A stretch of DNA of 64,000 nucleotides from Candidatus Omnitrophota bacterium (GTDB taxonomy: Bacteria > Omnitrophota > Gorgyraeia > Zapsychrales > Zapsychraceae), in assembly GCA_020429915.1 (NCBI GenBank), contig JAGQKV010000019.1, forward strand, positions 85,727-149,726. Direction: 5' to 3'. The notes below the pieces were generated by a model that made no database searches, was not told the DNA's origin, and saw only the letters and a program-made list of their open reading frames with translations. The position numbers were made by a program, and so were the translations under genes. Shown here in pieces: positions 9,227 through 64,000 of this stretch. Every line of letters starts with the position of its first letter. Positions within the stretch are counted from its first letter, which is position 1.

Positions 9227-11581
9227 ATGAGCGAGATGGGAACCAAAATTCTGGAAAAGGCGAACATCTATGTCGGCCTGTTCGTGATCGGCGCGTTGTT
9301 CGGTCTTTTGATCTTTGTCTCGGGGGTTGAGATCAAGGACCTGGATCTGTGGTTGCACCTGGGCGTGGGCAAGTACATCATGCTGAGCGGATCGGTGCCG
9401 CAGGAGGATCTGTTTAATGTCGTGACCACCGGCCACTTCTGGAATAACCATGAGTGGCTGTTTCAACTTTTGGTGTGGAATGTCTTTTCGCAGTGGGGGG
9501 AGCAGGGCCTGTCGCAGATGCAGACGGTGGTGGTGACCTTCACGATGATGCTGCTGTTTTTTATCGGGTACAGCAAGGAGCGACAGTTCATCATGATCCT
9601 GTCGCTGATCTTCGTCTACTTCGTGTATATCTCGCGGTTTACCATCCGGCCGGACCTGTTCAGTCTGACTTTTTTTACGCTCTACATCTTTATTATGTCG
9701 CTGCACATCGACAAGCGTTGGTCGCTGCCGGCGCTGGTCATCGTGCAGGTCCTGTGGACGAATTTTCACGGGTTCTTTTTCTTCGGGCCGCTGTTTGTCC
9801 TGATCGGCCTGTTTTCGGAATGGATGAAACGTCACGTCAAGCTGCCGTGGGAGTGGAACCAGTCCGGCCGGTTGACCGACGAGGAGTACGGCCGGTTAAA
9901 GATCGCGCTGGTGCTGGTGTCGGTGGCGTGCCTGGCCAATCCCCAGGGCGTGGAAGGCGCGCTCTACCCGATCAAGGTATTCTTTTCGCTATCCGGCGGA
10001 GACAGCATCTTCTTCGATTATATCCAGGAACTCAAACCGCCCGTGGAATGGGGCGATTTCTTCGGCGGGGGAAATTACGCGTACTACAAGCTGATGATCA
10101 TCGTCTCGGCGCTCACTTTTTTCCTCAACCGGCGCCGGCTGGATATCAGCGCGTTGATTCTGTGGATTATCTTTCTGCTGTTTTCCCTGAAGGCGATTCG
10201 CAATATCTCGTTCTTCGCCTTTACCGCCTACCTGTGCATCATCTCCAACTGCTACTATCTGGCAGCCGCCGATGTAATCCCGCTGCGGTTCAACAGCAAA
10301 CGCTTCGTTTACATCACCGGCATTTTTTGCAAGATCCTGCTGCTCGGTTTTATCGCGGAGAATTACAACGTGATGGCCGAACGCGGGTATTACGACTTCG
10401 ACAAGTACCAACGCAAAAGCGAGTTCGGAGGCATCGCCAAGCGGACCTACCCGTCCGGGGTGGCGGACTTCATCATCGAGAACGGGATCAAGGCCAATAT
10501 CTTTAATGACTTCAATTCGGGCGCCTATTTGATCGGCCGCACCTTTCCCAATATCAAGGTGTTTATGGACGGCCGCACCGAACTGTACGGCGGAGAATTC
10601 TTCCGGCAGTATCTCAAGATTTGGGAGCAAGGCAATCCCGAGACCTTCGAGGCCATGGTCGCGAAATATAACCTGACCGGTGCCTTTCTTAATTCCTCCC
10701 GCGAGGATATTCCCAAGGAGATCATCAGATATCTCGATCGGCAGAAGGAATGGGTCCCGGTGTATTTTAATTCGGACGGGGTCTTCTTTTTGAAAGATGT
10801 CCCGGAACACCGCGCCATCATCGAGCGCTACGCGGTGGACTTCGAGAACTGGCAGCCGCCGTATACCGATTTGCTTAGGATGGGGATCGCCAAGGCCGAA
10901 CCTTATGAGCACAATTACCGGGCCTTCACGCTGGAAAGCATGGACTACGATGAAGCCGCGCTGCGCGAGGCCAAAGAGGCCCTGCGTATCAAGCCGAACT
11001 ATGCGGACCCGCTGAAACTGATCGGTAAGGTTTTTGCCAAACGCAAACAGTTCCGCTCGGCCTTTGAGGCGTTCCGGCACGCCTGCCTGTATGATCCCGG
11101 CAACAAAAAGCTGCGATACAATCTGGCGCTGTCGTATCTCGATATGTCGGAGTACGAGGGCGCAATTGCGGCGTACCGGGATATTCACGCGGCGTGGCCG
11201 ACCGATCCCAAGGCGGTTTTCTTTCTGTCCAAGGCCTATGCCTTTAACCGGCAGTATGACGAATCTTTGAAGATGTTCCAGGAGGCCGTAAAGATGGCCC
11301 CGGCCAGCGCGGGCGACGCGGTCAACATTGCCGATGTGATCTTCGCAGACGGCAAGTACGATACGGCCATTGAGATGTACCGGACGGCGCTGGATATCAA
11401 TGATAAATTACCCGCGGTCCATCGCAAAGTCGGCGAGGCCTATCGGGCGCTGGATCAGCCGGAACTGGCCGAAAAGCACCTGAAGCGGGCAGCCGAATTA
11501 AAACCTCCGGAAGACGAGGCCGCGGAAGACGCGGATGATTCTCCAGCGCCTGCTCCCGCTGTCGTGAACAGCGCTGAATAA
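9227..11581 (+). CDS. Large polytopic membrane protein with a C-terminal TPR array. Paralog 2 of the tandem pair, same putative GT-C-like family.
   Basis: 784 aa. Asp-rich loop VEIKDLDLWLHL. Same motif set as 7084-9219. Longer TPR region plus an acidic/Pro-Ala tail. Confidence 0.8.
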   Translation: MSEMGTKILEKANIYVGLFVIGALFGLLIFVSGVEIKDLDLWLHLGVGKYIMLSGSVPQEDLFNVVTTGHFWNNHEWLFQLLVWNVFSQWGEQGLSQMQTVVVTFTMMLLFFIGYSKERQFIMILSLIFVYFVYISRFTIRPDLFSLTFFTLYIFIMSLHIDKRWSLPALVIVQVLWTNFHGFFFFGPLFVLIGLFSEWMKRHVKLPWEWNQSGRLTDEEYGRLKIALVLVSVACLANPQGVEGALYPIKVFFSLSGGDSIFFDYIQELKPPVEWGDFFGGGNYAYYKLMIIVSALTFFLNRRRLDISALILWIIFLLFSLKAIRNISFFAFTAYLCIISNCYYLAAADVIPLRFNSKRFVYITGIFCKILLLGFIAENYNVMAERGYYDFDKYQRKSEFGGIAKRTYPSGVADFIIENGIKANIFNDFNSGAYLIGRTFPNIKVFMDGRTELYGGEFFRQYLKIWEQGNPETFEAMVAKYNLTGAFLNSSREDIPKEIIRYLDRQKEWVPVYFNSDGVFFLKDVPEHRAIIERYAVDFENWQPPYTDLLRMGIAKAEPYEHNYRAFTLESMDYDEAALREAKEALRIKPNYADPLKLIGKVFAKRKQFRSAFEAFRHACLYDPGNKKLRYNLALSYLDMSEYEGAIAAYRDIHAAWPTDPKAVFFLSKAYAFNRQYDESLKMFQEAVKMAPASAGDAVNIADVIFADGKYDTAIEMYRTALDINDKLPAVHRKVGEAYRALDQPELAEKHLKRAAELKPPEDEAAEDADDSPAPAPAVVNSAE

Positions 11582-11645: not shown

Positions 11646-12851
11646 ATGCGCGAGATACTGACATTCATCCTGGCCGGCGGGCGCGGCGAACGCCTGGACC
11701 CCCTGACGCGGGACCGGGCCAAACCGGCGGTGCCGTTCGGCGGCATCTACCGGATCATCGACTTCACTCTGAGTAATTGCGTAAACTCAGGTATGCGAAG
11801 GATTTATGTGTTAACGCAGTACAAATCCTTTTCGCTGCAAAAGCATCTGCTCTCCGGCTGGGATATTGTGTCCAACCAGCTGGGCGAATTTATCGATGTT
11901 ATCCCGGCCCAGCAACGGATCGGGCAGGACTGGTATCGCGGGACGGCCGACGCGATTTATCAGAACAATTACGCGATCAAGGACCTCAATCCGGACCTGA
12001 TCCTGATTCTGGCGGGCGACCACATTTACAAAATGGACTACCGGGAGATGGTCAATTACCATCAGGCCAAAGGTGCAGATATGACCTTGGCCTGTATCCC
12101 GATGCCCAAGGAGACGGCCCGTGACTTCGGCGTGATTCAGGTCGACAAAGATAATCATGTGCGCGGATTTCAGGAGAAGCCGGACAAACCCAAGACGATT
12201 CCCGGCCGGCCGCAGGAGATTTATGCCTCGATGGGCATCTACCTGTTCAGTCGCAGCGCGCTGGACGCGGAGCTGGCTGTTGATGCCAAGAATAAAGACA
12301 GCCAGCATGACTTCGGCAAAAACATCGTGCCGCAGATGCTGGCGAATAAGCGCAAGATCTACGTCTATAATTTCACCGACGAAAAGAACCGCCCGCGATA
12401 CTGGCGCGACATCGGGACCCGGGACGCCTATTATCAGGCCAATATGGATTTGTTGCGGACCCGGCCGCCGTTCAATCTTTACGACCGCGGTTGGCCGGTC
12501 AGGACTTTTCACGAACAGTATCCGCCGATCATGACGATGAGCACGCGTTCGCACGACAGCTCGATTATCAATTCGATGATCTCCGGCGGGTGTATGCTCC
12601 AGGGGGCCAAGGTCGAGAATTCCGTTCTGTCGCCGAACGTCCGGATCGAGGCCGGCGCGCATGTCAAGAATTCGATCATTATGGAGAGCGTCACTATCGG
12701 CCGTAATGCCGTGATTCACAACGCGATTATCGACAAGGAAGTCAATATCCCGGGACGCATGCAAGTCGGTGTGGACCGCAAGGCGGATGAAAAGAACTTT
12801 ATCCTGACGACCTCCGGGATCGTCATCGCTTTGAAACGACAGAAGCTGTAA
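11646..12851 (+). CDS. glgC: Glucose-1-phosphate adenylyltransferase.
   Basis: 401 aa. N-terminus ILAGGRGERLDPLTRDRAKPAVPFGGIYRIIDFTLSNCVNSG plus a C-terminal left-handed beta-helix. Classic GlgC. Confidence 0.92.
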   Translation: MREILTFILAGGRGERLDPLTRDRAKPAVPFGGIYRIIDFTLSNCVNSGMRRIYVLTQYKSFSLQKHLLSGWDIVSNQLGEFIDVIPAQQRIGQDWYRGTADAIYQNNYAIKDLNPDLILILAGDHIYKMDYREMVNYHQAKGADMTLACIPMPKETARDFGVIQVDKDNHVRGFQEKPDKPKTIPGRPQEIYASMGIYLFSRSALDAELAVDAKNKDSQHDFGKNIVPQMLANKRKIYVYNFTDEKNRPRYWRDIGTRDAYYQANMDLLRTRPPFNLYDRGWPVRTFHEQYPPIMTMSTRSHDSSIINSMISGGCMLQGAKVENSVLSPNVRIEAGAHVKNSIIMESVTIGRNAVIHNAIIDKEVNIPGRMQVGVDRKADEKNFILTTSGIVIALKRQKL

Positions 12852-12867
12852 ACGAAAGAGGAACACC

Positions 12868-14076
12868 ATGATTGTGAAACCGAAGATTCGGGGCTTTATT
12901 TGCACCACCGCGCATCCGGTCGGCTGCGCGCACAATGTCCAACGACAAATCGACTATGTCCTCGGGCACGGTCCGATCAAAGACGGACCCAAGAAGGTGC
13001 TGGTCTTGGGGGCGTCCACGGGTTACGGTTTGGCATCACGGATCGTCGCGGCGTTCGGTTCCCGCGCTGAGACGGTGGGTGTCTTTTTCGAGAAGGAAGC
13101 CGACGGCAAGCGCACGGCCACGGCCGGATACTATAACTCCGTCGCGCTGGAAGAAAAGATTCTGGCCGAGGGGCTGTATACCCGCAGCGTCAACGGCGAT
13201 GCATTTTCCGACGAAGTCAAACAGCAGGTGGTCGAGATCCTCAAGAGGGATGTCGGCCCGGTCGATCTGGTTGTCTACAGTGTCGCCGCGCCGCGCCGTG
13301 TTCATCCGCGCACCGGCAAGGTCAGCAAGTCGGTGCTCAAACCGGTGGGAAGAGGATATACCAACAAGTCGATCGATATGCAGAATGCCGCCCTCGAAGA
13401 GGTAACGTTGCCGGCCGCCACGGAGGAAGAAATCGAACAGACGGTGGCCGTGATGGGCGGAGAGGACTGGCACTACTGGATCGACATTCTGGAGGAAAAC
13501 GGTCTGCTCGCCGACGGGGTCACGACCGTGGCATATTCTTACATCGGCCCCGAGGTCACGCAGGGTGTCTACCGCAACGGGACGATCGGCAGAGCCAAGG
13601 ATCATCTCGAGCGCACTGCCAATGAGCTCGACGCGCGACTGAAGAAAATCAACGGCCGCGCGCTGATCTCCGTCAACAAGGCCCTGGTCACCCAGTCTTC
13701 CTCGGCCATTCCCTTTATTCCGCTCTACTTCGTCATCCTCAGCAAGGTCATGAAAGAAAAGGGCCTGGAGGAAGACACGGTCATGCAGATCGACCGCCTG
13801 TTCCGCGATTTTCTTTACAGCGGTGAGCCGCCCGCCACCGATGAAGCCGGCTTCATTCGGCTGGACGACCGGGAATTGCGTGATGATGTCCAGGCGATCG
13901 TCAACGAACGTTGGGACCAGCTCACCCAGGAGACGCTCAGCGGCCTGGCCGACCTGGAGGGCTACCAATCCGACTTTTTGCGGTTGTTCGGTTTCGGCCT
14001 GCCCGGTGTCGACTATGACGCGGACGTCGACGTCGGCCGCACCCTGCCGTCCTTAAAAGAATCCCCCGCATCTTAA
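12868..14076 (+). CDS. fabV: trans-2-enoyl-ACP/CoA reductase, FabV/TER family.
   Basis: 402 aa. N-terminus MIVKPKIRGFICTTAHPVGCAHNVQRQIDYV and GASTGYGLASRI match the FabV hallmark. Confidence 0.88.
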   Translation: MIVKPKIRGFICTTAHPVGCAHNVQRQIDYVLGHGPIKDGPKKVLVLGASTGYGLASRIVAAFGSRAETVGVFFEKEADGKRTATAGYYNSVALEEKILAEGLYTRSVNGDAFSDEVKQQVVEILKRDVGPVDLVVYSVAAPRRVHPRTGKVSKSVLKPVGRGYTNKSIDMQNAALEEVTLPAATEEEIEQTVAVMGGEDWHYWIDILEENGLLADGVTTVAYSYIGPEVTQGVYRNGTIGRAKDHLERTANELDARLKKINGRALISVNKALVTQSSSAIPFIPLYFVILSKVMKEKGLEEDTVMQIDRLFRDFLYSGEPPATDEAGFIRLDDRELRDDVQAIVNERWDQLTQETLSGLADLEGYQSDFLRLFGFGLPGVDYDADVDVGRTLPSLKESPAS

Positions 14077-54770: not shown

Positions 54771-55370
54771 ATGAACAGTCCCCGACTCACTAATAAGCAG
54801 AAAGACGTCCTCAAATACATTTACCGAAGTATCCGGCAAAACAAGCTGCCGCCCACCATTCGCGAAATCGCCCGCGAATTCGGATTTTCTTCCACAGGAA
54901 CTGTCAGGGATTATCTAAAAGCCTTGGTTTCCAAAGGTTACATCCGCATCACTGCCAACAAGTCACGGGCTATTGAGCTGGTCTCGGAAAGTCTGTTTTC
55001 GCTGCCAATTCTTGGCCGCGTGCAGGCCGGGTTGCCGACATTGGCCGTAGAGGAGATCGAAGGCTACCTGAATCTCGATGCCCTTCTGTTTGAGGAGGAA
55101 TCGGCCTTTGCTCTGCGGGTCCGGGGCGACAGCATGAACGGTGCCGGCATCATGCCGGATGACCTGGTCCTCGTCCGCCGGCAAAATGTGGCCCAGACCG
55201 GCGAGACCGTGGTGGCGCTCATTGACGAGGAAGCCACCGTCAAATACCTCCAAAAGCAAAACGGCGGCTATGTCCTGCAGGCCGCCAATCCCGCCTATCC
55301 GCCTATTCCGGTCGACGAAAACGTGTCCATTATCGGCAAGGTGATCAGCGTCGTCCGCCGTTACCGCTAA
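54771..55370 (+). CDS. lexA: LexA repressor.
   Basis: 199 aa. N-terminal winged HTH (LTNKQKDVLKYI...IREIAREFGFSSTGTV). Cleavage-site region. S24 peptidase motifs GDSMNGAGI and K in VVALIDEEATVKYL. Confidence 0.9.
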   Translation: MNSPRLTNKQKDVLKYIYRSIRQNKLPPTIREIAREFGFSSTGTVRDYLKALVSKGYIRITANKSRAIELVSESLFSLPILGRVQAGLPTLAVEEIEGYLNLDALLFEEESAFALRVRGDSMNGAGIMPDDLVLVRRQNVAQTGETVVALIDEEATVKYLQKQNGGYVLQAANPAYPPIPVDENVSIIGKVISVVRRYR

Positions 55371-55485
55371 GTCGTCCCGTCCTAAAGACTGCTTCGCCCT
55401 CAATTTCTCATTGTCTTTACTGGTCGATCATAGGATAATGTAGCCTGCGTTTAATCCGAAACGGAAGATAAAACAGGGAAGTGGT

Positions 55486-56733
55486 ATGGAATCCGGTGGA
55501 AAATTGATCATGTTCCTCAGCCGGCATTTTGAGGAAATCACCTATGCCTTGGCCGCGCTGCTGAGCCTTTTTTTGGGCATGTATGTCATTTATCAGTTCA
55601 AGCGGCGGCCGCTGGGCGTGCAGGTGCGTTCGTACGTCGAGACCGCCATCGGATCGACGCTCATCTTCCTGTTGCTTTTCGGCAGCACCTTGATATTGGC
55701 CATTTATTGGGCCAACTACAAAAGCCCCTATATCCACTTCGATCTGTATGATTCCATCTCCCGGAATGCCAACTGGGTACGAGAGGATTTGACCATTTAC
55801 CTGGTCAACGACAATGAGCTGATCGCCTTATCATGTGACGGTAACCATCAGGAAGTAGTCTTTACCAGCGACGAGGAGCCCATCCGGCAGTTCGAGTTCT
55901 CGCCGCACGGCCGTTACATACTGGTTTCCACGTATAAAAAGTTGTTCATGATCGATACCGAGGAGAAGAAAGATTGGTTGGTCGATCAGGTCCAGTTGCC
56001 CGGTTCCGAGGAAGATCTGAAGGGATCGATCTCCGGGATCAGCTGGTCGCCCGGAGGGGACAGGTTCTCATATGAACTATCCCGTTGGTCGAATTTCGGG
56101 TCGCAGGCCAAGGTCTACATCTACGATATCAACGACCGTAGCAAGAAGTCGATTGACAGCCCCACCCGCCGGCTGGGTACGCTCTACTGGGACCTGGCCG
56201 GAGAGAATCTGTATTACCTCAAACAGGCTTCCAGTGAACTTGAGGAAAGGCAATTGGTATACAAGCTGAAGGTCTACCGTGTGGACCTGAGCGATCTTAA
56301 GGTTCATTTCGTGGATGATATCATGATGGAAGAGGAGAACTTTTCTCCGATCCATTTGTCATTGCTGGGGATAAAACTATATCAGCCGGAGCGTGGGTTG
56401 ACCTTCGACCGCTTGGGGAATCAAACCGTGCTGAAATCCCGGCAGGGTCACCTGATCGGGATCGACCGTTACAACTATTTCTTCTACCAAGGCAAGTGGT
56501 TCCGCCGACGTCTGTTCCGGGTCAAACGTGACGTAGACACGAGTAAGAAACAGACGATGGTCAACGCCTATGGCGAGCACGTGTTGCGTCAGATCCGGTG
56601 GACGCCGTCCGGCCGTTATGTGGTGATGGACCATAGTTACTGGGGCATTCTCATTATGGACCCGCGGCGCCAGAAGGTGGCCCAGATTTATCCCTATGAC
56701 GTCAATGTTTACGGCTGGTTTTCGGAAATTTAG
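55486..56733 (+). CDS. Membrane-anchored beta-propeller (TolB/WD40-like) protein, function unknown.
   Basis: 415 aa. Two N-terminal TM helices. Repeated FSPHGRY/WSPGGDRF/WTPSGRY blade motifs. Confidence 0.5.
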   Translation: MESGGKLIMFLSRHFEEITYALAALLSLFLGMYVIYQFKRRPLGVQVRSYVETAIGSTLIFLLLFGSTLILAIYWANYKSPYIHFDLYDSISRNANWVREDLTIYLVNDNELIALSCDGNHQEVVFTSDEEPIRQFEFSPHGRYILVSTYKKLFMIDTEEKKDWLVDQVQLPGSEEDLKGSISGISWSPGGDRFSYELSRWSNFGSQAKVYIYDINDRSKKSIDSPTRRLGTLYWDLAGENLYYLKQASSELEERQLVYKLKVYRVDLSDLKVHFVDDIMMEEENFSPIHLSLLGIKLYQPERGLTFDRLGNQTVLKSRQGHLIGIDRYNYFFYQGKWFRRRLFRVKRDVDTSKKQTMVNAYGEHVLRQIRWTPSGRYVVMDHSYWGILIMDPRRQKVAQIYPYDVNVYGWFSEI

Positions 56734-56797
56734 TGTCAAAGATCTTGTGTTCGTATCCGAATGCGGCTAGAATAAGCATAGTATCCCTGATTGTCAA

Positions 56798-56980
56798 ATG
56801 ACAAACGACACACCACTCGCATTTTCCAAGGAACAACTCAACGGCATCATCGACCAGATTGCCTCCGATTCCAGTGTCGGCATAGACACACGGTTGACCC
56901 ACGCGGTCAGCATTGCCTACTTGCAGCGTATCGAGGCCCGCCTCGAACGCGTTGAGCAAAGCTTGAACCTTCAGGATTAG
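56798..56980 (+). CDS. Small hypothetical ORF (60 aa).
   Basis: ATG embedded in the palindrome TTGTCAAATGACAA. Helical, amphipathic prediction. No similarity recognised. Weak. Confidence 0.2.
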   Translation: MTNDTPLAFSKEQLNGIIDQIASDSSVGIDTRLTHAVSIAYLQRIEARLERVEQSLNLQD

Positions 56981-57108
56981 CAGAGACCACTTCGAATAAA
57001 ACAACGCGCCTATTGAAGGAAGCGCATCCGGAAGCGAATTGCGTATGCCCGCCAGACGGTGCTGTGGCCGAGAGCATGGCTTCCGACGGCATCAAAAAGG
57101 AGAACAAT

Positions 57109-57702
57109 ATGAAAAACTCGTGGCTGATTTGGGTGTTTGTGGTTGGGATCGTACTGACGATTTTAATAGCGTTTAATTATCAGGGGGCGCAGGATACCGT
57201 TCCCCTCAGTGAGATCTTCCCGGAAACCGAGACGTATCCGTTGGAAATAGAATATGTTGACGAGCAGCCGGTCAGCGAACCGCCCGCGATCGCGCGTACC
57301 GCACCGGCAGCAAGTCAGCCGGTGACGCAAATCGTCCGGACGCCGACCGAGCCGCCGAGTCCACCGGTGCCGGAGCCGGTCGTCGCAAAAGTCGCTGCGG
57401 CACCGCCTAAACCTGCGCCTGCGGCCGCTCAAACTCCCGCGGCCGCCCAAACAACTGCGGCCAAGCCATACAAATACAGCATCCAGGTGGCATCGTTCAA
57501 GGACAAAGATAAGGCGCAGCAGAAGGTCGAAGAGCTGAACCAGAAGGACTACCAGGCCTTTCTCGTTTCCAAGGATCTCCGCGACAAAGGCACTTGGCAT
57601 CGTGTGTATGTGGGTAAATTTGATTCCAAATCCGAAGCCGACAGCTATCTGCCGAAGGTCAAAAAGAATTATTCATCCAGTTTTATTATCGCCACCAAAT
57701 AA
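57109..57702 (+). CDS. SPOR-domain (peptidoglycan-binding) membrane-anchored protein.
   Basis: Start at the ATG with an AAAAGGAGAAC RBS. One TM helix, Pro/Ala-rich linker. C-terminal SPOR domain YSIQVASFKDKDKAQQKVEEL...WHRVYVGKFDSKSEA. Confidence 0.7.
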   Translation: MKNSWLIWVFVVGIVLTILIAFNYQGAQDTVPLSEIFPETETYPLEIEYVDEQPVSEPPAIARTAPAASQPVTQIVRTPTEPPSPPVPEPVVAKVAAAPPKPAPAAAQTPAAAQTTAAKPYKYSIQVASFKDKDKAQQKVEELNQKDYQAFLVSKDLRDKGTWHRVYVGKFDSKSEADSYLPKVKKNYSSSFIIATK

Positions 57703-57710
57703 ACTTGAAG

Positions 57711-57765
57711 GAATGCCATTCCCCATGCGATCCCCGGAAACGGGGCCATGGGGATTTATACTTTT
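57711..57765 (+). terminator. Rho-independent terminator (nested hairpins plus T-rich tail).
   Basis: GGAATGCCATTCC, then CCCCATG...CCCCGGAAACGGGG...CATGGGG, followed by ATTTATACTTTT. Confidence 0.5.
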
Positions 57766-57814
57766 ATGACCTTCAGGCCCGGGCCGAAAGGGACGGGCGG
57801 AGCCCCATCCGCAA

Positions 57815-59563
57815 TTGGAGCCTATGAACGCCAAACTCAGAAATATCGGTTCCGGTCTGCTGATTTTCCTGCTGGGTTGTCTGGTGTATGCCAACGGTTT
57901 GAACGTGCATGGGTTCGAATTCCGTGACGATGAGGTGTTCTATAAAAAGAGTACCCAGGAAATGGTGGCGACCGGCGAGATCCTTTCGCCGAAGTACTTC
58001 GGCGAAGATCGGTTCCAGAAGCCCATACTCTACTACTGGTTCATCCTCGCCGCCTACCGGGTATTCGGAGTGAGCTGGTTTGCCGCTCGCATCACTTCGT
58101 GTCTGTTTGCCGCCGGTGCCTTGGTCCTGACCTGGTTAATTGCGAAATCCCTGTTTGACCGCCGCACGGGATACGTCAGCGTCTTCATTCTGATGACGAT
58201 GCCGCTGTTCTTTCGTCATGCCAAGAATGCCGTCCCGGACATGGCGCTCAATTTCTTTATCGTCTTGGCCCTGTATCTGTTTATCCGTTTCGTTGAAGAC
58301 GGGCACCGCTGGCGTTTTGCCGCCGGTTTCTTCCTGGCCTGCGGCGCCGGATTTATGGTCAAGGGTTTTGCCGCGTTGCTGTTTCCCTACCTGACCGTGA
58401 TCCTGTACGCGGTCTGGGAACGGGACTGGAGCATCCTGCGGGATATGCGCTTCTTCCGCGGCACTCTGCTGTTTCTGGCCGTGGTTCTGCCGTGGTTTAT
58501 TTTTATGACCGTTGTTCACGGAAGCGAATACATCGAGTACATGTGGTTCCGGGAGACCACGGACCGCTTGTTGAAGGTGGAGGAAGGCCATTTCGTGCTA
58601 CGCAAGATCGGAGACTTTCTGCGTCACTTCGGATTTTATGTCGCGGTCCTCTTCCAGCAGTATGCCCCGTGGTGTCTCGTTTCCGGCGCCGCGCTGGTGG
58701 CTGCATTTGTCGGTTGCCGGCGGGGAGGGGACCACCGGGAGCCCTACCGGTTTTTGATGTTGTGGATTGCGACCGTAATCGTCTTTTTCTCCTTCATGTA
58801 TTTTACGATCAGCCACTACATGCTGGTCTTATCCACACCGCTGGCCATAGCTACCGCCGCGTTCGTGCTGCGTCCCCTGCCCGACACACGCTGGCTGGCT
58901 GTGCTGATGACATGGTTACGCCGGCATCTGCTTTTTCTGGCTTATTTTGTGTTGCTTGCCGTCTACGTATTCGTGCTGCTGTTTTTCGGCGGTGCTCCGC
59001 TCGTCCTGGCGGGGGCGGTCGGCGCCCTGGGTGTGACGATCGGTATTCTAGGAATTCGCACTCCCGGTCCGGTTGCGCCGGTGGCCCTGCTGGCGGCCCT
59101 GCTGGCGGCGGTGATGTTCCAAACCCCGTATCTTTCACAGCTGGGCCTGACGACCCACACTGCCTGGCGAAAATTTGCCGGGGAAATTCAGCGGAGGGGC
59201 CATCAACCTTATACGGTCGGAGTGGCCAGCCATGATCTCCATGAAAAAGAGCTGCAGATCTATTTTCCGAGCCAGCGCATCGGCAAATATGCCAACGACA
59301 ATGAGGAGTACACGGTCTATATGTTGCGCCAGCTCTTCGGCAATAAGCAAAGAGTCTATTGTCTGATGACGGAAAAAGACTATAATAAGTACTTAAAAGA
59401 CACCCGGGAACCGGTGGAGATCATTCGGCGGGATTATATGCTGCGAAAGAGGCTGAATATTGACGGCGGATTCTTCATGGCCCTCTTGCGGTTGGATCGC
59501 CGGACGATCTTTCACTATTTCATGGAAAATGTGGTGTTGATCAAGAGGGAGCAACGTGTCTGA
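57815..59563 (+). CDS. ArnT/PMT-family (GT-C fold, GT39/GT83-like) polyprenyl-phosphate-sugar-dependent glycosyltransferase.
   Basis: 582 aa with about 12 TM segments. Loop-1 motif FEFRDDEVFY. KPILYYW, RHAKNAVPDMALNFF. Confidence 0.8.
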   Translation: MEPMNAKLRNIGSGLLIFLLGCLVYANGLNVHGFEFRDDEVFYKKSTQEMVATGEILSPKYFGEDRFQKPILYYWFILAAYRVFGVSWFAARITSCLFAAGALVLTWLIAKSLFDRRTGYVSVFILMTMPLFFRHAKNAVPDMALNFFIVLALYLFIRFVEDGHRWRFAAGFFLACGAGFMVKGFAALLFPYLTVILYAVWERDWSILRDMRFFRGTLLFLAVVLPWFIFMTVVHGSEYIEYMWFRETTDRLLKVEEGHFVLRKIGDFLRHFGFYVAVLFQQYAPWCLVSGAALVAAFVGCRRGGDHREPYRFLMLWIATVIVFFSFMYFTISHYMLVLSTPLAIATAAFVLRPLPDTRWLAVLMTWLRRHLLFLAYFVLLAVYVFVLLFFGGAPLVLAGAVGALGVTIGILGIRTPGPVAPVALLAALLAAVMFQTPYLSQLGLTTHTAWRKFAGEIQRRGHQPYTVGVASHDLHEKELQIYFPSQRIGKYANDNEEYTVYMLRQLFGNKQRVYCLMTEKDYNKYLKDTREPVEIIRRDYMLRKRLNIDGGFFMALLRLDRRTIFHYFMENVVLIKREQRV

Positions 59564-60281
59564 TCCGGAATCCCGGGAAAATCGCGTCAAAAAGGTCATT
59601 TGTTCGGTCATCTTCCCGGTCTATAATGAGGAAGAGTCTCTGGAGCCGTTGCTGTCCGAAGTGCTCACCGTGATGTCCGGTCTGAACAAGCCTTACGAGA
59701 TTATCTTTGTGGACGACTCCTCATCGGATGACTCCCCGAGAATTTTAAGTCGGTTCCGGGACGAGCTTCCGGAGATTATCCGCATCGTCACCTTGCCGGA
59801 GCGCAGCGGTCAGACCAAGGCGTTGCGGGTTGGCCTGGATAAGGCCCGCGGTGAAGTTGCCGTGACGCTGGACGCGGATCTGCAGAATGATCCTGCGGAT
59901 ATCCCGGCGTTGTTACAGAAGCTGGAAGAGGGATTTGACTGTGTTTGCGGTTGGCGGAGAGACCGTCAGGATACGCTTGTGAAGGCGGCGTTATCCAAGC
60001 TGGGAAATATCCTGCAACGGATATTTACCCGGCTGACCATTCATGACGTCTCTTGTACCCTGCGGGCCTACCGGCAAGAGTGTATCGCGCGCATTCCGCT
60101 CAACTGGGAGGGGCAGCATCGGTTCATACCCTTGTGCCTTTCGCTCCAGGGATTTAAGGTGGGGGAGATCGAAAGTCACCACCGCGCGCGCCGGTTCGGT
60201 GCGACCAAATACAGTCACAAAAGGATTTTTCGGGTCGTGACCGATTTTTTCAGAATACTTAAAGCGGGAGGCAAGGCGTGA
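59556..60281 (+). CDS. GT2-family polyprenyl-phosphate glycosyltransferase (ArnC/DPM1-like).
   Basis: CSVIFPVYNEEESL, IFVDDSSSD (DxD), LDADLQND. 241 aa. Overlaps the upstream GT-C gene. Confidence 0.85.
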   Translation: MSDPESRENRVKKVICSVIFPVYNEEESLEPLLSEVLTVMSGLNKPYEIIFVDDSSSDDSPRILSRFRDELPEIIRIVTLPERSGQTKALRVGLDKARGEVAVTLDADLQNDPADIPALLQKLEEGFDCVCGWRRDRQDTLVKAALSKLGNILQRIFTRLTIHDVSCTLRAYRQECIARIPLNWEGQHRFIPLCLSLQGFKVGEIESHHRARRFGATKYSHKRIFRVVTDFFRILKAGGKA

Positions 60282-60604
60282 CGGGCGAGATGTTTTTGGG
60301 AATGGAAATGAAGTACTGGTTGATTATCGGCTTTATCGGGCAACTCACCTTCGGGGCGCGGTTTATCGTGCAATGGATATGTTCGGAATTCCGCCAGGAA
60401 AGCCACATTCCGGTGGCCTTTTGGTATCTGAGCATCGTGGGCGGGTTGATTCTGCTGATGTACGCGATTTCGCGACAGGATCCGGTTTTCATCATGGGCC
60501 AGTCGATGGGTGTATTGATTTATGCCCGTAATTTACGGCTGATTTACAAGAAAAAACGGCGCCGGACCACCTTTAAACAATCGGTGGAGCTGTCCGGCAC
60601 TTGA
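60278..60604 (+). CDS. Small membrane protein of the lipid-A-biosynthesis N-terminal (LAB_N) domain family.
   Basis: 108 aa with 3 TM segments. YWLIIGFIGQLTFGARFIVQW. Commonly partnered with ArnC-like GT2 enzymes. Start may be the internal Met. Confidence 0.55.
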   Translation: MTGEMFLGMEMKYWLIIGFIGQLTFGARFIVQWICSEFRQESHIPVAFWYLSIVGGLILLMYAISRQDPVFIMGQSMGVLIYARNLRLIYKKKRRRTTFKQSVELSGT

Positions 60605-60688
60605 CAGGCACCCGGCTTAGCGGTTGAATTTTTTCCGAAAAGCCGATAGAATTGAACAGGTTTAGCGCCTAAGTAAAGAGGAGTATTC

Positions 60689-61066
60689 GTGAAGATACTT
60701 ATTGTTGATGATTCCGTTATGGACCGGCGGTTGACGATCAATCTGCTCCGTAAAAACAACGTCACCAATGATATCCTGGAGGCGGTTGACGGCGAGGAGG
60801 GATTGGAGGTCCTGAGTCAACATTATAAGGAAATTTGCCTGATCTTGCTCGACTGGCAGATGCCGAAAATGGATGGGATCGAATTCATGAAAGGGGTGGT
60901 TAAGGTCCCCGAAGTCGCTTCGATCCCGATTGTGATGATCACCGCTTCCGGTTCCGATGACAGCAAGCGGGAGGCGCGTGACGCGAATCCCAGCTTGGCC
61001 GGCTATGTGGTCAAGCCTTTCAAACCGGCTGAACTTCTGGAAACGATCCAACCTTATCTTAAGTAA
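60689..61066 (+). CDS. Single-domain response regulator (CheY-like receiver).
   Basis: 125 aa. ILIVDDS, phospho-acceptor D in ILLDWQMPKMDG, and K in VVKPF. Confidence 0.85.
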   Translation: MKILIVDDSVMDRRLTINLLRKNNVTNDILEAVDGEEGLEVLSQHYKEICLILLDWQMPKMDGIEFMKGVVKVPEVASIPIVMITASGSDDSKREARDANPSLAGYVVKPFKPAELLETIQPYLK

Positions 61067-61079
61067 ACGGTGTACCCGC

Positions 61080-61676
61080 ATGGTGCATATACCGCTTGAC
61101 GACAACGATCAACTCGACGAACGCTACATCCAGGCGTTGATGCTTTCCCGTGTCATTAAGCGCATTCTCAAGAATCGCGCCGACATCGAGCTGTCCTCCA
61201 ATCCCGTCTTTATCGAAAAACCCATCGCGGAATTCATGAATCGTCTGAAGGTCGACAGTATCGACAAGTTCAACGAAACGACCTATATTTCATCGATTAA
61301 TTTCTACAAAGACCGTGCTTCACTCGACAAACACGAAGCCCTCGGCGCTTTGATCATTTATGTCGGCGCAAGTTATCTGGTGGAGTTGGTCAAAAAACTT
61401 GACTATCCGGAGGTGGACGAGGATGATCCGGAGGCTATGCTGGATGCTATCGGAACATTCTGCAATCTGATCGCCGGCAACTTTAAGGCCGGCCTGACGC
61501 AGTTGGGATATATCGAGCTGGTCATGTCGCATTTTTCCGGATACGAAAACAAGGTGCTACTCGGGGTCGACTTCTCACCCAATGAATCCCGCATGTATGA
61601 AATCGAATTCGAAATCCGCGGCGAGAAGCGGATCGTAGCCGAGTTCTCCATGGCGTCCATACCTCTGGAAACCTGA
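61080..61676 (+). CDS. Hypothetical protein, possibly CheX/CheC-like phosphatase fold.
   Basis: 199 aa. MLDAIGTFCNLIAGNFKAG resembles the CheC/CheX D/E..G..NI..G motif. Adjacent to the orphan receiver. Low confidence. Confidence 0.35.
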   Translation: MVHIPLDDNDQLDERYIQALMLSRVIKRILKNRADIELSSNPVFIEKPIAEFMNRLKVDSIDKFNETTYISSINFYKDRASLDKHEALGALIIYVGASYLVELVKKLDYPEVDEDDPEAMLDAIGTFCNLIAGNFKAGLTQLGYIELVMSHFSGYENKVLLGVDFSPNESRMYEIEFEIRGEKRIVAEFSMASIPLET

Positions 61677-61750
61677 TTGTCACCGGCCCGGCAGCCGAAC
61701 CCGCGGGCATACCTGTTAGCCGAACGTTTCAATACCGAAAGGGATTACTT

Positions 61751-62383
61751 ATGAGCGGAAAAAGCAAACAATGGATCACCGTTGCCGTTGTCGTGGCCGT
61801 CGTGGCTGTGGTGGCGGGCGTTCGTTTATACCTGAACAATCAGGCCGTCAACGCCGTCACCGGACGGACAAAGGGAAATCCTCAAGCCAAGGTAAAGATC
61901 GTCGAGTTCATTGATTTTCAATGTCCTGCCTGCGCGCAGGGTGCGAAAATGCTGAATGCCCGCTTTAAGCAGTATCCGGATCAGCTTCATTTGGAAATGA
62001 AGTACTTCCCGCTCAAGATGCACGCGCATGCCTTTCTCAGTTCACGTTTTGCCGAGTGTGCCGCCCGTCAGCAGAAATTCTGGGAATACCATGATCAGTT
62101 GATATATAAACAAAAGGATTGGAGCCAAGTCGTGAATGCGTATCCTATGTTTCAACAGATGGCCCAGGAGGTCGGTGTGGACATGGACCAATTACACGGG
62201 TGCCTGAACGACACGCGCGTGGACAAGGTAATCAGTGAGCATCAGACCGAAGGGCGCAAACGCGGGGTTCGCAGTACGCCGACATACTACGTCAACGGAG
62301 ATATGGTCGTGGGAACGCGGGATTTGGACAAGCGCATCAAGGAGTTGCTGGAAGAACCGGATGAACAGGGAGGCCAAAATTAA
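61751..62383 (+). CDS. DsbA-family thiol:disulfide oxidoreductase, membrane-anchored.
   Basis: 210 aa. N-terminal TM helix. CxxC active site FIDFQCPACAQG. Confidence 0.75.
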   Translation: MSGKSKQWITVAVVVAVVAVVAGVRLYLNNQAVNAVTGRTKGNPQAKVKIVEFIDFQCPACAQGAKMLNARFKQYPDQLHLEMKYFPLKMHAHAFLSSRFAECAARQQKFWEYHDQLIYKQKDWSQVVNAYPMFQQMAQEVGVDMDQLHGCLNDTRVDKVISEHQTEGRKRGVRSTPTYYVNGDMVVGTRDLDKRIKELLEEPDEQGGQN

Positions 62384-62819
62384 TCCGTTTGTCATCATTC
62401 GATTAGTGATCGGGACGATATTTGTCGTCTCCGGGTTCGAGAAGGCGATCACACCGTACCAGAACTTTCAGTACGTCATCCAGGCCTACCGGCTTTTTCC
62501 GGAGTTTGCCGAACCGCTCATCGCCCAGATATTTCCCTGGATCGAACTGCTCACCGGTATATTTTTGATATTGGGTTTATGGTTGCGCTGGGCCCTGACC
62601 GTCTCGGGTTTGATGCTGGCCGGCTTTCTGACGATTGTGGGCCAGGCCTTGATACGCGGGTTACCGATCGGCGAGTGCGGTTGTTTCGGGTCGTTGATCA
62701 GTCTGCCGCTCTACGGTGTTTTTACGATGGATACGATCCTGATGACCGGCACGGTTCTGGCCTATAAGAACTTGGCCAAGACCTCCCGATGGGCGATCGA
62801 CGGCCGGTCAAATGAGTAG
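62361..62819 (+). CDS. MauE/DoxX-like membrane protein (probable partner of the adjacent DsbA-like protein).
   Basis: 152 aa with 4 TM segments. Conserved GECGCFG motif. Confidence 0.6.
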   Translation: MNREAKINPFVIIRLVIGTIFVVSGFEKAITPYQNFQYVIQAYRLFPEFAEPLIAQIFPWIELLTGIFLILGLWLRWALTVSGLMLAGFLTIVGQALIRGLPIGECGCFGSLISLPLYGVFTMDTILMTGTVLAYKNLAKTSRWAIDGRSNE

Positions 62820-64000
62820 GCGACATCGACTTATCGGTTTAGTGTGTTTAACGTTACTGCTGGGGGAGACTATGGTATCTGCGGAAGGCTTTATCAAGCG
62901 CCCGAACGTCAGCGGACAGTTTTATACGGACGATCCCGGCGAGTTGTCCCGGCAAGTCGACGCCTTCATCGGCAACGCCAGCGTCGATCCCTACGAGACG
63001 GCGGTGCCGATTATCATCGCGCCGCACGCCGGCTATTACTTCTCCGGCGCAGTGGCCGGACACAGTTTTAAGGCCGTCAAGAACCGCGATATCCAGACGG
63101 CCGTCGTCCTGGCGCCCAGTCATTTTTACGGTTTCGACGGAGTCTCGATTTGGGACAAGGGAGGGTTCGAAACACCACTGGGTGTTATCGATGTCGATGA
63201 AGATTTTGCCGGCGAGCTGAGCGCGGCCGGCGATGACTTTGTTTTTGATGCCAAGGCGTATGAACGGGAGCATGCGTTGGAGGTGGAGCTTCCATTCATT
63301 CAACGTGCCTTTCCCGAGGCGCGGCTTGTTCCCGTAATTATCGGCACGCCCACTCCGAAGACTTTGCTTGACTTTGCCCGCGCTTTAGACCGGCTGATCG
63401 GCGACCGCAAAGATGTATTGGTCGTGGTCAGCACGGACCTCTCCCACTATCATCCCGACGAGGTGGCTCGCGATATGGATGCCACCGCCATCGAAGCGAT
63501 CAAGAATCTTCAGGCCGAAAGAATTTACCGCGAATGCCGGCAGGGTTCGATGGAGATGTGCGGTTGCATGCCGGTCACGGCGGCGCTGCTGTTGGCGAAA
63601 CTGCGCGGGTTGACCAGCGTGGACCTGTTGCGTTACAGCAATTCGGGCGATGTCAGCCGCGACAAAGATCGGGTGGTCGGTTACAGCGCGTTGGCGATAT
63701 ATGGCCAGGCACAAGCCGGATCCGAAACGGGGGGACTCAATACGGGGCAAAAGCAGCGTCTTTTGGACCTCGCTCGCGAGGCGATAACCACCTATGTCGT
63801 GGACGGGAGAAAGATTCCCGTCAATGAGCCGGATCCCCGGCTGAGCGCGGAGGAAGGAGCCTTCGTTTCGGTGTACAAAGGCGATCGGTTGCGCGGTTGC
63901 ATAGGAAATATCATCGCCGACGGCCCCTTGTGCGGGACCGTGCGGAATATGGCCATCGCGGCGGCGACCGAAGATCCGCGTTTTGCGGCAATACGGCCGG
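62812..64000 (+). CDS. Memo-like (AmmeMemoRadiSam system protein B) fused to an AMMECR1 domain (AmmeMemoRadiSam system protein A). 3' end outside the window.
   Basis: Translation (not in the supplied track; no stop before the window end): IIIAPHAGYYFSGAVAGHSF...VLAPSHF...VVSTDLSHYHPD...EMCGCMPV (Memo/extradiol-dioxygenase-like), then SVYKGDRLRGCIGNIIADGPLCGTVRNMAIAAATEDPRF (AMMECR1 CxG-containing core). Confidence 0.75.
   Translation, partial: MSRRHRLIGLVCLTLLLGETMVSAEGFIKRPNVSGQFYTDDPGELSRQVDAFIGNASVDPYETAVPIIIAPHAGYYFSGAVAGHSFKAVKNRDIQTAVVLAPSHFYGFDGVSIWDKGGFETPLGVIDVDEDFAGELSAAGDDFVFDAKAYEREHALEVELPFIQRAFPEARLVPVIIGTPTPKTLLDFARALDRLIGDRKDVLVVVSTDLSHYHPDEVARDMDATAIEAIKNLQAERIYRECRQGSMEMCGCMPVTAALLLAKLRGLTSVDLLRYSNSGDVSRDKDRVVGYSALAIYGQAQAGSETGGLNTGQKQRLLDLAREAITTYVVDGRKIPVNEPDPRLSAEEGAFVSVYKGDRLRGCIGNIIADGPLCGTVRNMAIAAATEDPRFAAIRP

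Follow-up and report, generated by a model that had tools for sequence, protein, structure and literature searches.

A Memo–AMMECR1 fusion protein with a predicted export signal, linked to dsbA-like and mauE genes and without a linked radical SAM gene, in an Omnitrophota bacterium

The window analysed here is a stretch of 64,000 nucleotides from a Candidatus Omnitrophota bacterium (assembly GCA_020429915.1, contig JAGQKV010000019.1, positions 85,727 to 149,726 of the forward strand), and the gene at its right edge encodes a Memo domain fused to an AMMECR1 domain, which are the components B and A of the AmmeMemoRadiSam system. The third component of the system is a radical S-adenosylmethionine (SAM) enzyme, AmrS. 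As judged from a conserved N-terminal signal, the window protein is most likely an exported, fused variant of this known system, linked to dsbA-like and mauE genes and with no radical SAM gene beside it. Both Memo and AMMECR1 belong to ancient families tied to human disease. On balance, the fusion is probably an exported, metal-dependent two-domain enzyme that works in the envelope alongside DsbA/MauE, with no radical SAM enzyme encoded with it.

The reading frame at 62812-64000 on the forward strand contains zero stops in translation and exits at the window end. A preliminary description of this DNA, made from the letters alone, recognized a single open reading frame (ORF) with Memo followed by AMMECR1, and this is borne out. 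All the motifs quoted there are recovered in the translation, namely IIIAPHAGYYFSGAVAGHSF at fusion residues 67-86, VVSTDLSHYHPD at residues 205-216, CGCMPV at residues 250-255 and RGCIGNIIADGPLCGTVRNMAIAAATEDPRF at residues 361-391, and a stop or frameshift separating the two domains was looked for and found neither in the window nor in the relatives. The gene comprises the following features.

62812..64000, forward strand: Memo–AMMECR1 fusion ORF (AmmeMemoRadiSam B-A), from translation, Pfam and NCBIfam; 396 of about 491 codons lie inside the window.
62812..62819, forward strand: overlap of 8 nt between the fusion ATG (62812) and the mauE stop TAG (62817-62819), from the sequence.
62812..62883, forward strand: predicted Sec-type signal peptide MSRRHRLIGLVCLTLLLGETMVSA, outside the Memo profile, with similar hydrophobic N-termini in homologues.
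62902..63690, forward strand: Memo domain, residues 31-293, from Pfam PF01875 (E 2.5e-63) and an AlphaFold2 (AF2) match to MEMO1.
63691..63765, forward strand: variable low-complexity interdomain linker (…YGQAQAGSETGGLNTGQKQ…), a length-variable gap region in alignment A1.
63766..64000, forward strand: N-terminal half of the AMMECR1 domain, residues 319-396, from the PF01871 profile, with the LRGCIG motif included.

The window gene is a genuine Memo–AMMECR1 fusion, and its match to the two families is far above chance. The NCBIfam model TIGR04336 (AmmeMemoSam_B) scores 281.8 bits against a cut-off of 26 and is covered over profile positions 1-269 of 270. In the AMMECR1 part, Pfam PF01871 matches residues 319-395 (E 1.6e-18, profile positions 2-79 of 168) up to the window end, which cuts the domain. 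Because half of this domain falls outside the window, the visible part reaches 76 bits on TIGR04335 (AmmeMemoSam_A; profile positions 2-82 of 175), under the cut-off of 99. Two close relatives supply the remainder. The database protein P0001 is 99% identical, contains 471 aa as called and continues the window frame; the locus L008, situated on a 1.63-Mb contig of an Omnitrophota metagenome-assembled genome (MAG), is 94% identical and encodes 491 aa from the long start in the same frame, a length also found in L002. Both full-length relatives pass both cut-offs, with 172-174 bits on TIGR04335 and 279-280 bits on TIGR04336. Judged from these two proteins, the complete window gene almost certainly passes the TIGR04335 cut-off.

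The candidate metal or active-site residues of the Memo domain are H72, H104, D209, H212 and C250, plus H154, and C363 is the invariant cysteine of the AMMECR1 LRGCIG motif. H72, H104, H154, H212, C250 and C363 are invariant across the radical-SAM-linked, the DsbA/MauE-linked and the other loci, and D209 is invariant in the Omnitrophota-type alignment. In the alignment to human MEMO1 over APHAGY, PSH and SSDxxH, the positions of H72, H104, D209 and H212 correspond, and C250 is presumably the counterpart of MEMO1 C244, to go by the fold match. Since the catalytic residues are kept, the window protein looks active and probably shares the chemistry of its relatives.

The AF2 model of P0001 (pLDDT 92.6, pTM 0.63) presents the fusion as two well-folded domains on a flexible tether, and residues 280-286 in the linker fall below a pLDDT of 50 and are modelled as disordered. 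The modelled Memo domain matches the Cu- and Fe-bound forms of MEMO1 with a TM score of 0.82-0.83, and the full AMMECR1 domain of P0001 matches PH0010/1VAJ with an alignment E of 1.8e-28 and a fold TM of 0.75. A fixed interdomain active site, considered as a candidate arrangement, finds no support in the model, given the pTM of 0.63 and the disordered linker.

The fusion itself is not new. The best 120 database proteins are all Memo plus AMMECR1 fusions of 411-540 aa, all but one of them within 460-540 aa, and nearly all of the best 80 genomic loci span both domains, the few shorter ones sitting at contig ends. Fused loci are derived from Omnitrophota, Acidobacteriota, Zixibacteria, WOR-3, Elusimicrobia, Aminicenantes and others, and the sources name them "AmmeMemoRadiSam system protein B" (NCBI), "protein B/protein A" (JGI) or "hypothetical protein". 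Fused genes are also present in cultured Ideonella and Segatella, where PGAP names the gene amrB and amrS stands next to it. The earlier argument that a fused form strengthens the idea of one common substrate consequently adds little, as the form is common in this family branch and already annotated; furthermore, the two confident domains and the disordered linker of the AF2 model form no fixed unit.

The Memo family profiles start at residue 29-31, so that the first approximately 28 residues of the protein form an extension. This extension has the build of a signal peptide, with a basic n-region (MSRRHR), a 12-residue h-region (LIGLVCLTLLLG) and the segment ETMVSA, in which V-S-A occupies positions -3 to -1. 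The charge on the N-side of the hydrophobic run is +3, and cleavage is predicted after 24 residues, before EGFIKRPNVSG. Signal calls were made with a heuristic of our own (hydrophobic run plus K/R) together with conservation. In alignment A1 and in a set of 83 loci, the extensions are unrelated in sequence and share one build of a basic start, a hydrophobic run of 12-16 residues and small residues at -3/-1 (endings such as VSA, AHA, ASA, AFS and AFA), followed by the invariant IKxPNVSGQFY. The run is present in 81 of the 83 genomic homologues and is preceded by K/R in 77 (~93%, from many phyla), and lipoboxes exist in 10, for instance LLAGC before SS in WOR-3 and YLSSC before G in Zixibacteria. 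Of 89 proteins in an independent database set that have an extension of at least 18 residues, 88 are hydrophobic there, and 30 of 120 database entries were called from an internal start. The Ideonella dechloratans fusion, which begins directly at the Memo core, serves as a signal-less control. The N-terminus had been described as signal-peptide-like, and this impression is confirmed: nearly all fused homologues conserve a signal of this kind, though its sequence differs. Because the signal is conserved in this manner, we regard the long form as real and the protein as most likely Sec-exported.

Alternatively, the extension might stay uncleaved as an N-terminal membrane anchor, keeping the catalytic domains at the cytoplasmic face, as the small charge differences across the hydrophobic run in several homologues and the classical cytoplasmic location of the system would allow. 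However, runs of 12-16 residues are too short for a membrane helix, small-x-small motifs follow the run, the N-side charge in the window is +3, and lipoboxes, the mark of extracytoplasmic lipoproteins, are present in homologues of six or more phyla, which makes such an anchor very improbable.

The position of the start codon bears on the same question. The 8-nt overlap of the fusion start with the mauE stop suggests translational coupling, and a 4-8 nt overlap with mauE or a gap of at most 15 nt is found in 29 of 36 related loci. The preliminary description raised the internal Met (MVSAEGF; Met21, ATG 62872) as the possible true start, which would give a canonical cytoplasmic B-A protein with its radical SAM gene just past the window end. 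The SD-like (Shine-Dalgarno-like) GGGGGAG situated 3 nt upstream of ATG 62872 and the internal start taken by gene callers in P0001-P0005 would agree with such a protein. However, neither L008, at 94% identity, nor the other relatives retain the motif, and Shine-Dalgarno sequences are missing from most starts in these loci; their analysis is uninformative for choosing the start. Simultaneously, 81 of 83 loci keep the in-frame hydrophobic extension upstream, the long start overlaps the mauE stop, and in the syntenic loci at 94% and 80% identity the genes downstream are something other than radical SAM genes. A cytoplasmic protein of this kind is hardly credible.

A dual localisation, in which starts at both ATG 62812 and ATG 62872 would yield an exported and a cytoplasmic form, is somewhat less remote and still quite unlikely. 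A Met lies 10-15 residues ahead of the Memo core, within the predicted signal peptide, in 50 of 83 loci, including most Omnitrophota, a placement unusually specific for a signal peptide and one that gene callers often choose; in the window an SD-like motif precedes it, and some genomes use two paralogues, a lipoprotein and a signal-less protein (L069). However, the relatives have no conserved ribosome-binding signal before the internal Met, and Met is a common hydrophobic residue of signal peptides.

Upstream of the long form, two genes adjoin the fusion.

61751..62383, forward strand: DsbA-like protein of the thioredoxin fold, with a membrane anchor or signal at the N-terminus and CPAC as the active site (PF13462, E 3.4e-28; PF01323, E 2.7e-18).
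62361..62819, forward strand: MauE/DoxX-family membrane protein of about 152 aa with a CGCFG motif (PF07291, E 7e-22; PF07681).

The DsbA-like translation contains VAVVVAVVAVVAG and FQCPAC. The longest mauE ORF (62235-62819) overlaps the 3' end of the dsbA-like gene by 149 nt; its likely start is M43 (ATG 62361), the homologues having 144-159 aa. The likely start still overlaps the dsbA-like gene by 23 nt, and all three operon genes are thus overlapped or coupled. In a survey of 87 loci with hidden Markov models (HMMs), 33 loci have the dsbA-like and mauE genes directly upstream of the fusion. An unknown protein and an HTTM/DCC protein follow it directly in 25 loci, 20 of which show gaps of at most 30 nt. 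The downstream order in L008 (94%), L001 (80%), L003, L004/L005 and L009 starts with a 204-aa protein, for which three membrane helices are predicted and zero family matches exist, and continues with a protein of approximately 420-430 aa that combines HTTM with a DCC1-like thiol-disulfide oxidoreductase. As read from gene order, the dsbA-like gene, mauE and the fusion, often with the unknown protein and HTTM/DCC, constitute a conserved Omnitrophota operon. In a neighbour-joining tree, the DsbA/MauE-type loci form one Omnitrophota clade. A radical SAM gene adjoins the fusion in the sister of that clade (L046) and in the outgroups; hence, the window arrangement looks derived.

Several further genes surround this operon. 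What follows HTTM/DCC varies: some loci have a Y1 transposase and a giant repeat protein there, others a TPR protein together with an AsmA protein. The giant repeat proteins (L008:14989-21158; L003:15201-21485, 5097 aa in L003) lie a few kb past the operon, beyond the Y1-type transposase gene, and are built of repeated ...NGMIAYDSTDDELQAYVGGTW... units. The 204-aa protein of L008 (L008:11503-12117) belongs to a family of 150-205 aa with 355 homologues, the named sources of which are all Omnitrophota MAGs. Its members have three predicted transmembrane helices and a small alpha/beta domain with the invariant residues H125, D136, N137, R140, C159 and C197, and they are always paired with the HTTM/DCC1-like protein; no match to this family was found in Pfam or NCBIfam, nor a fold match in the PDB. 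Upstream of the operon, the window region 54771-61676 encodes on the same strand, in conserved order, LexA, a beta-propeller protein, a SPOR-domain protein, a PMT_2 glycosyltransferase, GT2, LAB_N and a CheX-like protein, and the ORF at 60689-61066 is probably the 125-aa response regulator called there in relatives. A promoter and terminator scan over 60500-64000 gave counts at chance level.

No radical SAM gene accompanies the window operon. The partner had been expected just downstream of the window; instead, the 94%- and 80%-identical syntenic loci carry the 204-aa protein and HTTM/DCC at that place. In the 64-kb window there are zero ORFs of at least 180 aa with CxxxCxxC, and an HMM built from bona fide AmrS proteins has zero matches in the window or in any DsbA/MauE-type locus. 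Meanwhile, no TIGR04337-type gene exists in the 62.8 kb upstream of the fusion, nor within 10 kb on either side in 38 loci of the clade. Locally, then, the three-component arrangement, in which a TIGR04337 enzyme is encoded alongside A and B, is absent.

In the more distant relatives the situation differs. In 22 loci, found in Acidobacteriota, Anaerolineales, some Omnitrophota, one MAG each of Deltaproteobacteria and Verrucomicrobiota, and unclassified MAGs, a candidate radical SAM gene is located immediately upstream of a fusion with a signal. Four of the upstream enzymes were scanned against TIGR04337 and reach 369-381 bits, with the cut-off at 220; the linked enzymes have N-terminal extensions of 35-100 residues. 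In 15 of them the extension contains an RRxF[LF] twin-arginine motif, then an Ala/Gly-rich stretch, with AWA in several. Of 10 extensions tested, 9 have TIGR01409 (TAT_signal) as the top or second match and match no other signal-type model; the score is above cut-off for three extensions, one of which (L065) passes as a full-length protein too. A hydrophobic anchor of approximately 22 residues is present in five other linked enzymes and in 85 of 120 database relatives. The twin-arginine extensions predict a radical SAM enzyme exported by way of twin-arginine translocation (Tat), and an extracytoplasmic version of the whole three-part system apparently exists, of which the window clade appears to be a branch without a linked radical SAM gene.

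Some details of these loci deserve a separate description. The enzymes with the Tat motif are those at L074:8674-9924, L075:8776-9933, L065:6409-7722 and L083:8706-9857 and 11 others (DRRSFLKCALASGAALGV…AWA). The Omnitrophota-type AmrS (L046:8699-9844; P0121-P0240) begins with basic residues and then a hydrophobic segment about 22 residues long (MIKKIRPYLFLILNIILCVIIVSIIAIYPPP), resembling a membrane anchor. Furthermore, 19 of these loci encode a 730-780-aa protein with a spermidine-synthase-like domain (SAM/dcSAM-binding fold), located at L046:6519-8702, at L074:11427-13793 on the reverse strand and in 17 other loci, and taken as membrane-bound. In the Acidobacteriota loci, a polyferredoxin (Fer4) membrane protein and a DUF6599 protein are encoded nearby. 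In the WOR-3 MAG L069, two fusions lie approximately 370 bp apart (9935-11407 and 11773-13140), one with a lipoprotein signal (LLAGC) and the other starting at the Memo core without a signal. Segatella hominis, with a signal-bearing fusion and a signal-less amrS, displays a third pattern. The signal-bearing fusions with neither radical SAM nor DsbA/MauE genes have mixed neighbours (PilZ, pilins, Lon, M23 peptidase) and no shared theme.

From these loci arises the possible, if less probable, explanation that the window fusion, though exported, continues to require an AmmeMemoRadiSam radical SAM enzyme whose gene lies at another place in the genome. Such an enzyme would be cytoplasmic and modify the fusion or its substrate before export, in the manner of the anaerobic sulfatase maturases, or would itself be exported or anchored, and dsbA-mauE would serve only general disulfide formation or be present by descent. 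The TIGR04337 genes directly upstream of related exported fusions in Acidobacteriota, Anaerolineales, other Omnitrophota and further groups point in this direction, as do the signal-less amrS that adjoins the signal-bearing fusion of Segatella hominis and the catalytic residues shared by the radical-SAM-linked and unlinked groups. However, the gene is missing from the surroundings of the fusion in the window and in the 38 clade loci, whereas in every radical-SAM-linked locus it is immediately adjacent. In addition, none of the best 120 of 7995 AmrS homologue matches lies on the large contigs bearing window-type fusions (1.63 Mb, 872 kb, 425 kb and 3.36 Mb), a weak negative.

In the favoured reading, that of an exported metal-dependent enzyme acting without a radical SAM enzyme encoded beside it, translation would begin at ATG 62812, coupled to the preceding mauE. 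The product would be exported through Sec and the 24-residue signal peptide removed after V-S-A, leaving a mature protein that begins a few residues before the invariant IKxPNVSGQFY. In human MEMO1 the His/His/Cys (plus Asp/His) site binds Cu or Fe; the Memo domain of the fusion keeps this site, the LRGCIG Cys is retained in the AMMECR1 domain, and the flexible linker tethers both domains. All operon products are predicted to be membrane-bound or periplasmic and to come from thiol-disulfide or quinone-linked redox families. In such a setting, the fusion may be a metal-dependent redox or modification enzyme acting on an envelope substrate, which, as a guess from the partners, could be an isoprenoid quinone or lipid, or a secreted protein; the DsbA/MauE pair may supply disulfide or oxidising equivalents, and the fusion would be independent of any radical SAM enzyme encoded elsewhere.

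Several points weigh against this reading. The more distant exported fusions keep an adjacent TIGR04337 enzyme, and since the catalytic residues are identical in the linked and unlinked groups, the chemistry may still need a radical SAM partner, which could be situated elsewhere in the genome. The wider synteny (LexA, SPOR, PMT) is also conserved in the clade, so that the adjacency of dsbA-mauE is weaker evidence of function; it could be a housekeeping pair's inherited gene order without a functional link. As a minor point, the internal Met21 (ATG 62872), with GGGGGAG 3 nt ahead of it in the window, may give a signal-less isoform.

A bolder proposal concerns the chemistry of the whole branch. 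In its usual role the radical SAM partner activates a C-H bond, requiring SAM and low-potential electrons, and HTTM is vitamin-K-dependent carboxylase-like. It may be speculated, as a rather unlikely scenario, that a quinone- and thiol-driven envelope module (HTTM/DCC, the 204-aa protein and DsbA/MauE) has displaced the radical SAM enzyme, that the Memo–AMMECR1 pathway would operate extracytoplasmically with an isoprenoid quinone or lipid, or else a secreted protein, as its substrate, and that the fused branch would be broadly extracytoplasmic, its radical SAM enzyme being Tat-exported in some phyla.

If a large fused branch of the family is exported, the substrate there must be extracytoplasmic or membrane-bound, which narrows the search and would argue against a purely nucleotide or cytoplasmic substrate for that branch. 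Burroughs and colleagues are said to have linked Memo contexts, in 2019, to nucleotide-base and isoprenoid modification. The Omnitrophota operon can be regarded as a natural experiment, with the same catalytic residues, no linked radical SAM gene and disulfide- or quinone-type partners. Tat-type signals on TIGR04337 enzymes would be unusual if confirmed. In the literature search, no functional study of the bacterial AmmeMemoRadiSam system was found, only mentions in passing, and there was no report of exported AMMECR1 or Memo proteins, nor of an exported or periplasmic radical SAM enzyme.

Among known systems, MauD/MauE, of methylamine dehydrogenase maturation, and the DsbA/DsbB-type disulfide systems offer thioredoxin-fold/membrane pairs for comparison. 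As in these systems, a CxxC thioredoxin-fold protein is paired at the window locus with a MauE-family protein, here directly upstream of the fusion; unlike the MauD/MauE system, the window-type loci contain no methylamine dehydrogenase genes. To our knowledge, a pairing of DsbA-like and MauE proteins with Memo–AMMECR1 has not been described.

Compared with the AmmeMemoRadiSam system (amrA, amrB, amrS; TIGR04335/TIGR04336/TIGR04337), both non-radical-SAM components are found in the window fusion, and the His/His/Asp/His/Cys set and the LRGCIG Cys are kept. The differences are that B and A are fused, an export signal is added and no amrS is linked, and the window-type neighbours are dsbA-like, mauE, the unknown membrane protein and HTTM/DCC. 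The fusions on the Ideonella dechloratans plasmid NZ_CP088082.1 and the Segatella hominis plasmid NZ_CP137560.1 have the same B-then-A order at 34-35% identity, but in both amrS is immediately downstream, unlike the window type; the Ideonella fusion has no signal peptide, whereas the Segatella fusion has one. The exported fusions with a Tat-bearing or anchored AmrS (L074, L065, L046) agree with the window fusion in architecture, in having a Sec or lipoprotein signal, and in their catalytic residues. In that type, the gene directly upstream encodes a TIGR04337 enzyme that bears an RRxFLK signal or else a hydrophobic anchor, usually with a spermidine-synthase-like membrane protein beside it, and there is no dsbA, mauE or HTTM gene.

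In the case of human MEMO1 (PDB 3BCZ; 7KQ8, Fe-bound; 7L5C, Cu-bound), the fold is the same and the APHAGY, PSH and SxDxxH motifs are aligned at 24% identity, but MEMO1 is a cytosolic single-domain protein without an AMMECR1 fusion. The archaeal AMMECR1 proteins (PH0010/1VAJ, MM0484/1ZQ7 and ST0229/1WSC) share 33-38% identity over the whole C-terminal domain and the same fold, whereas these homologues are stand-alone and cytoplasmic.

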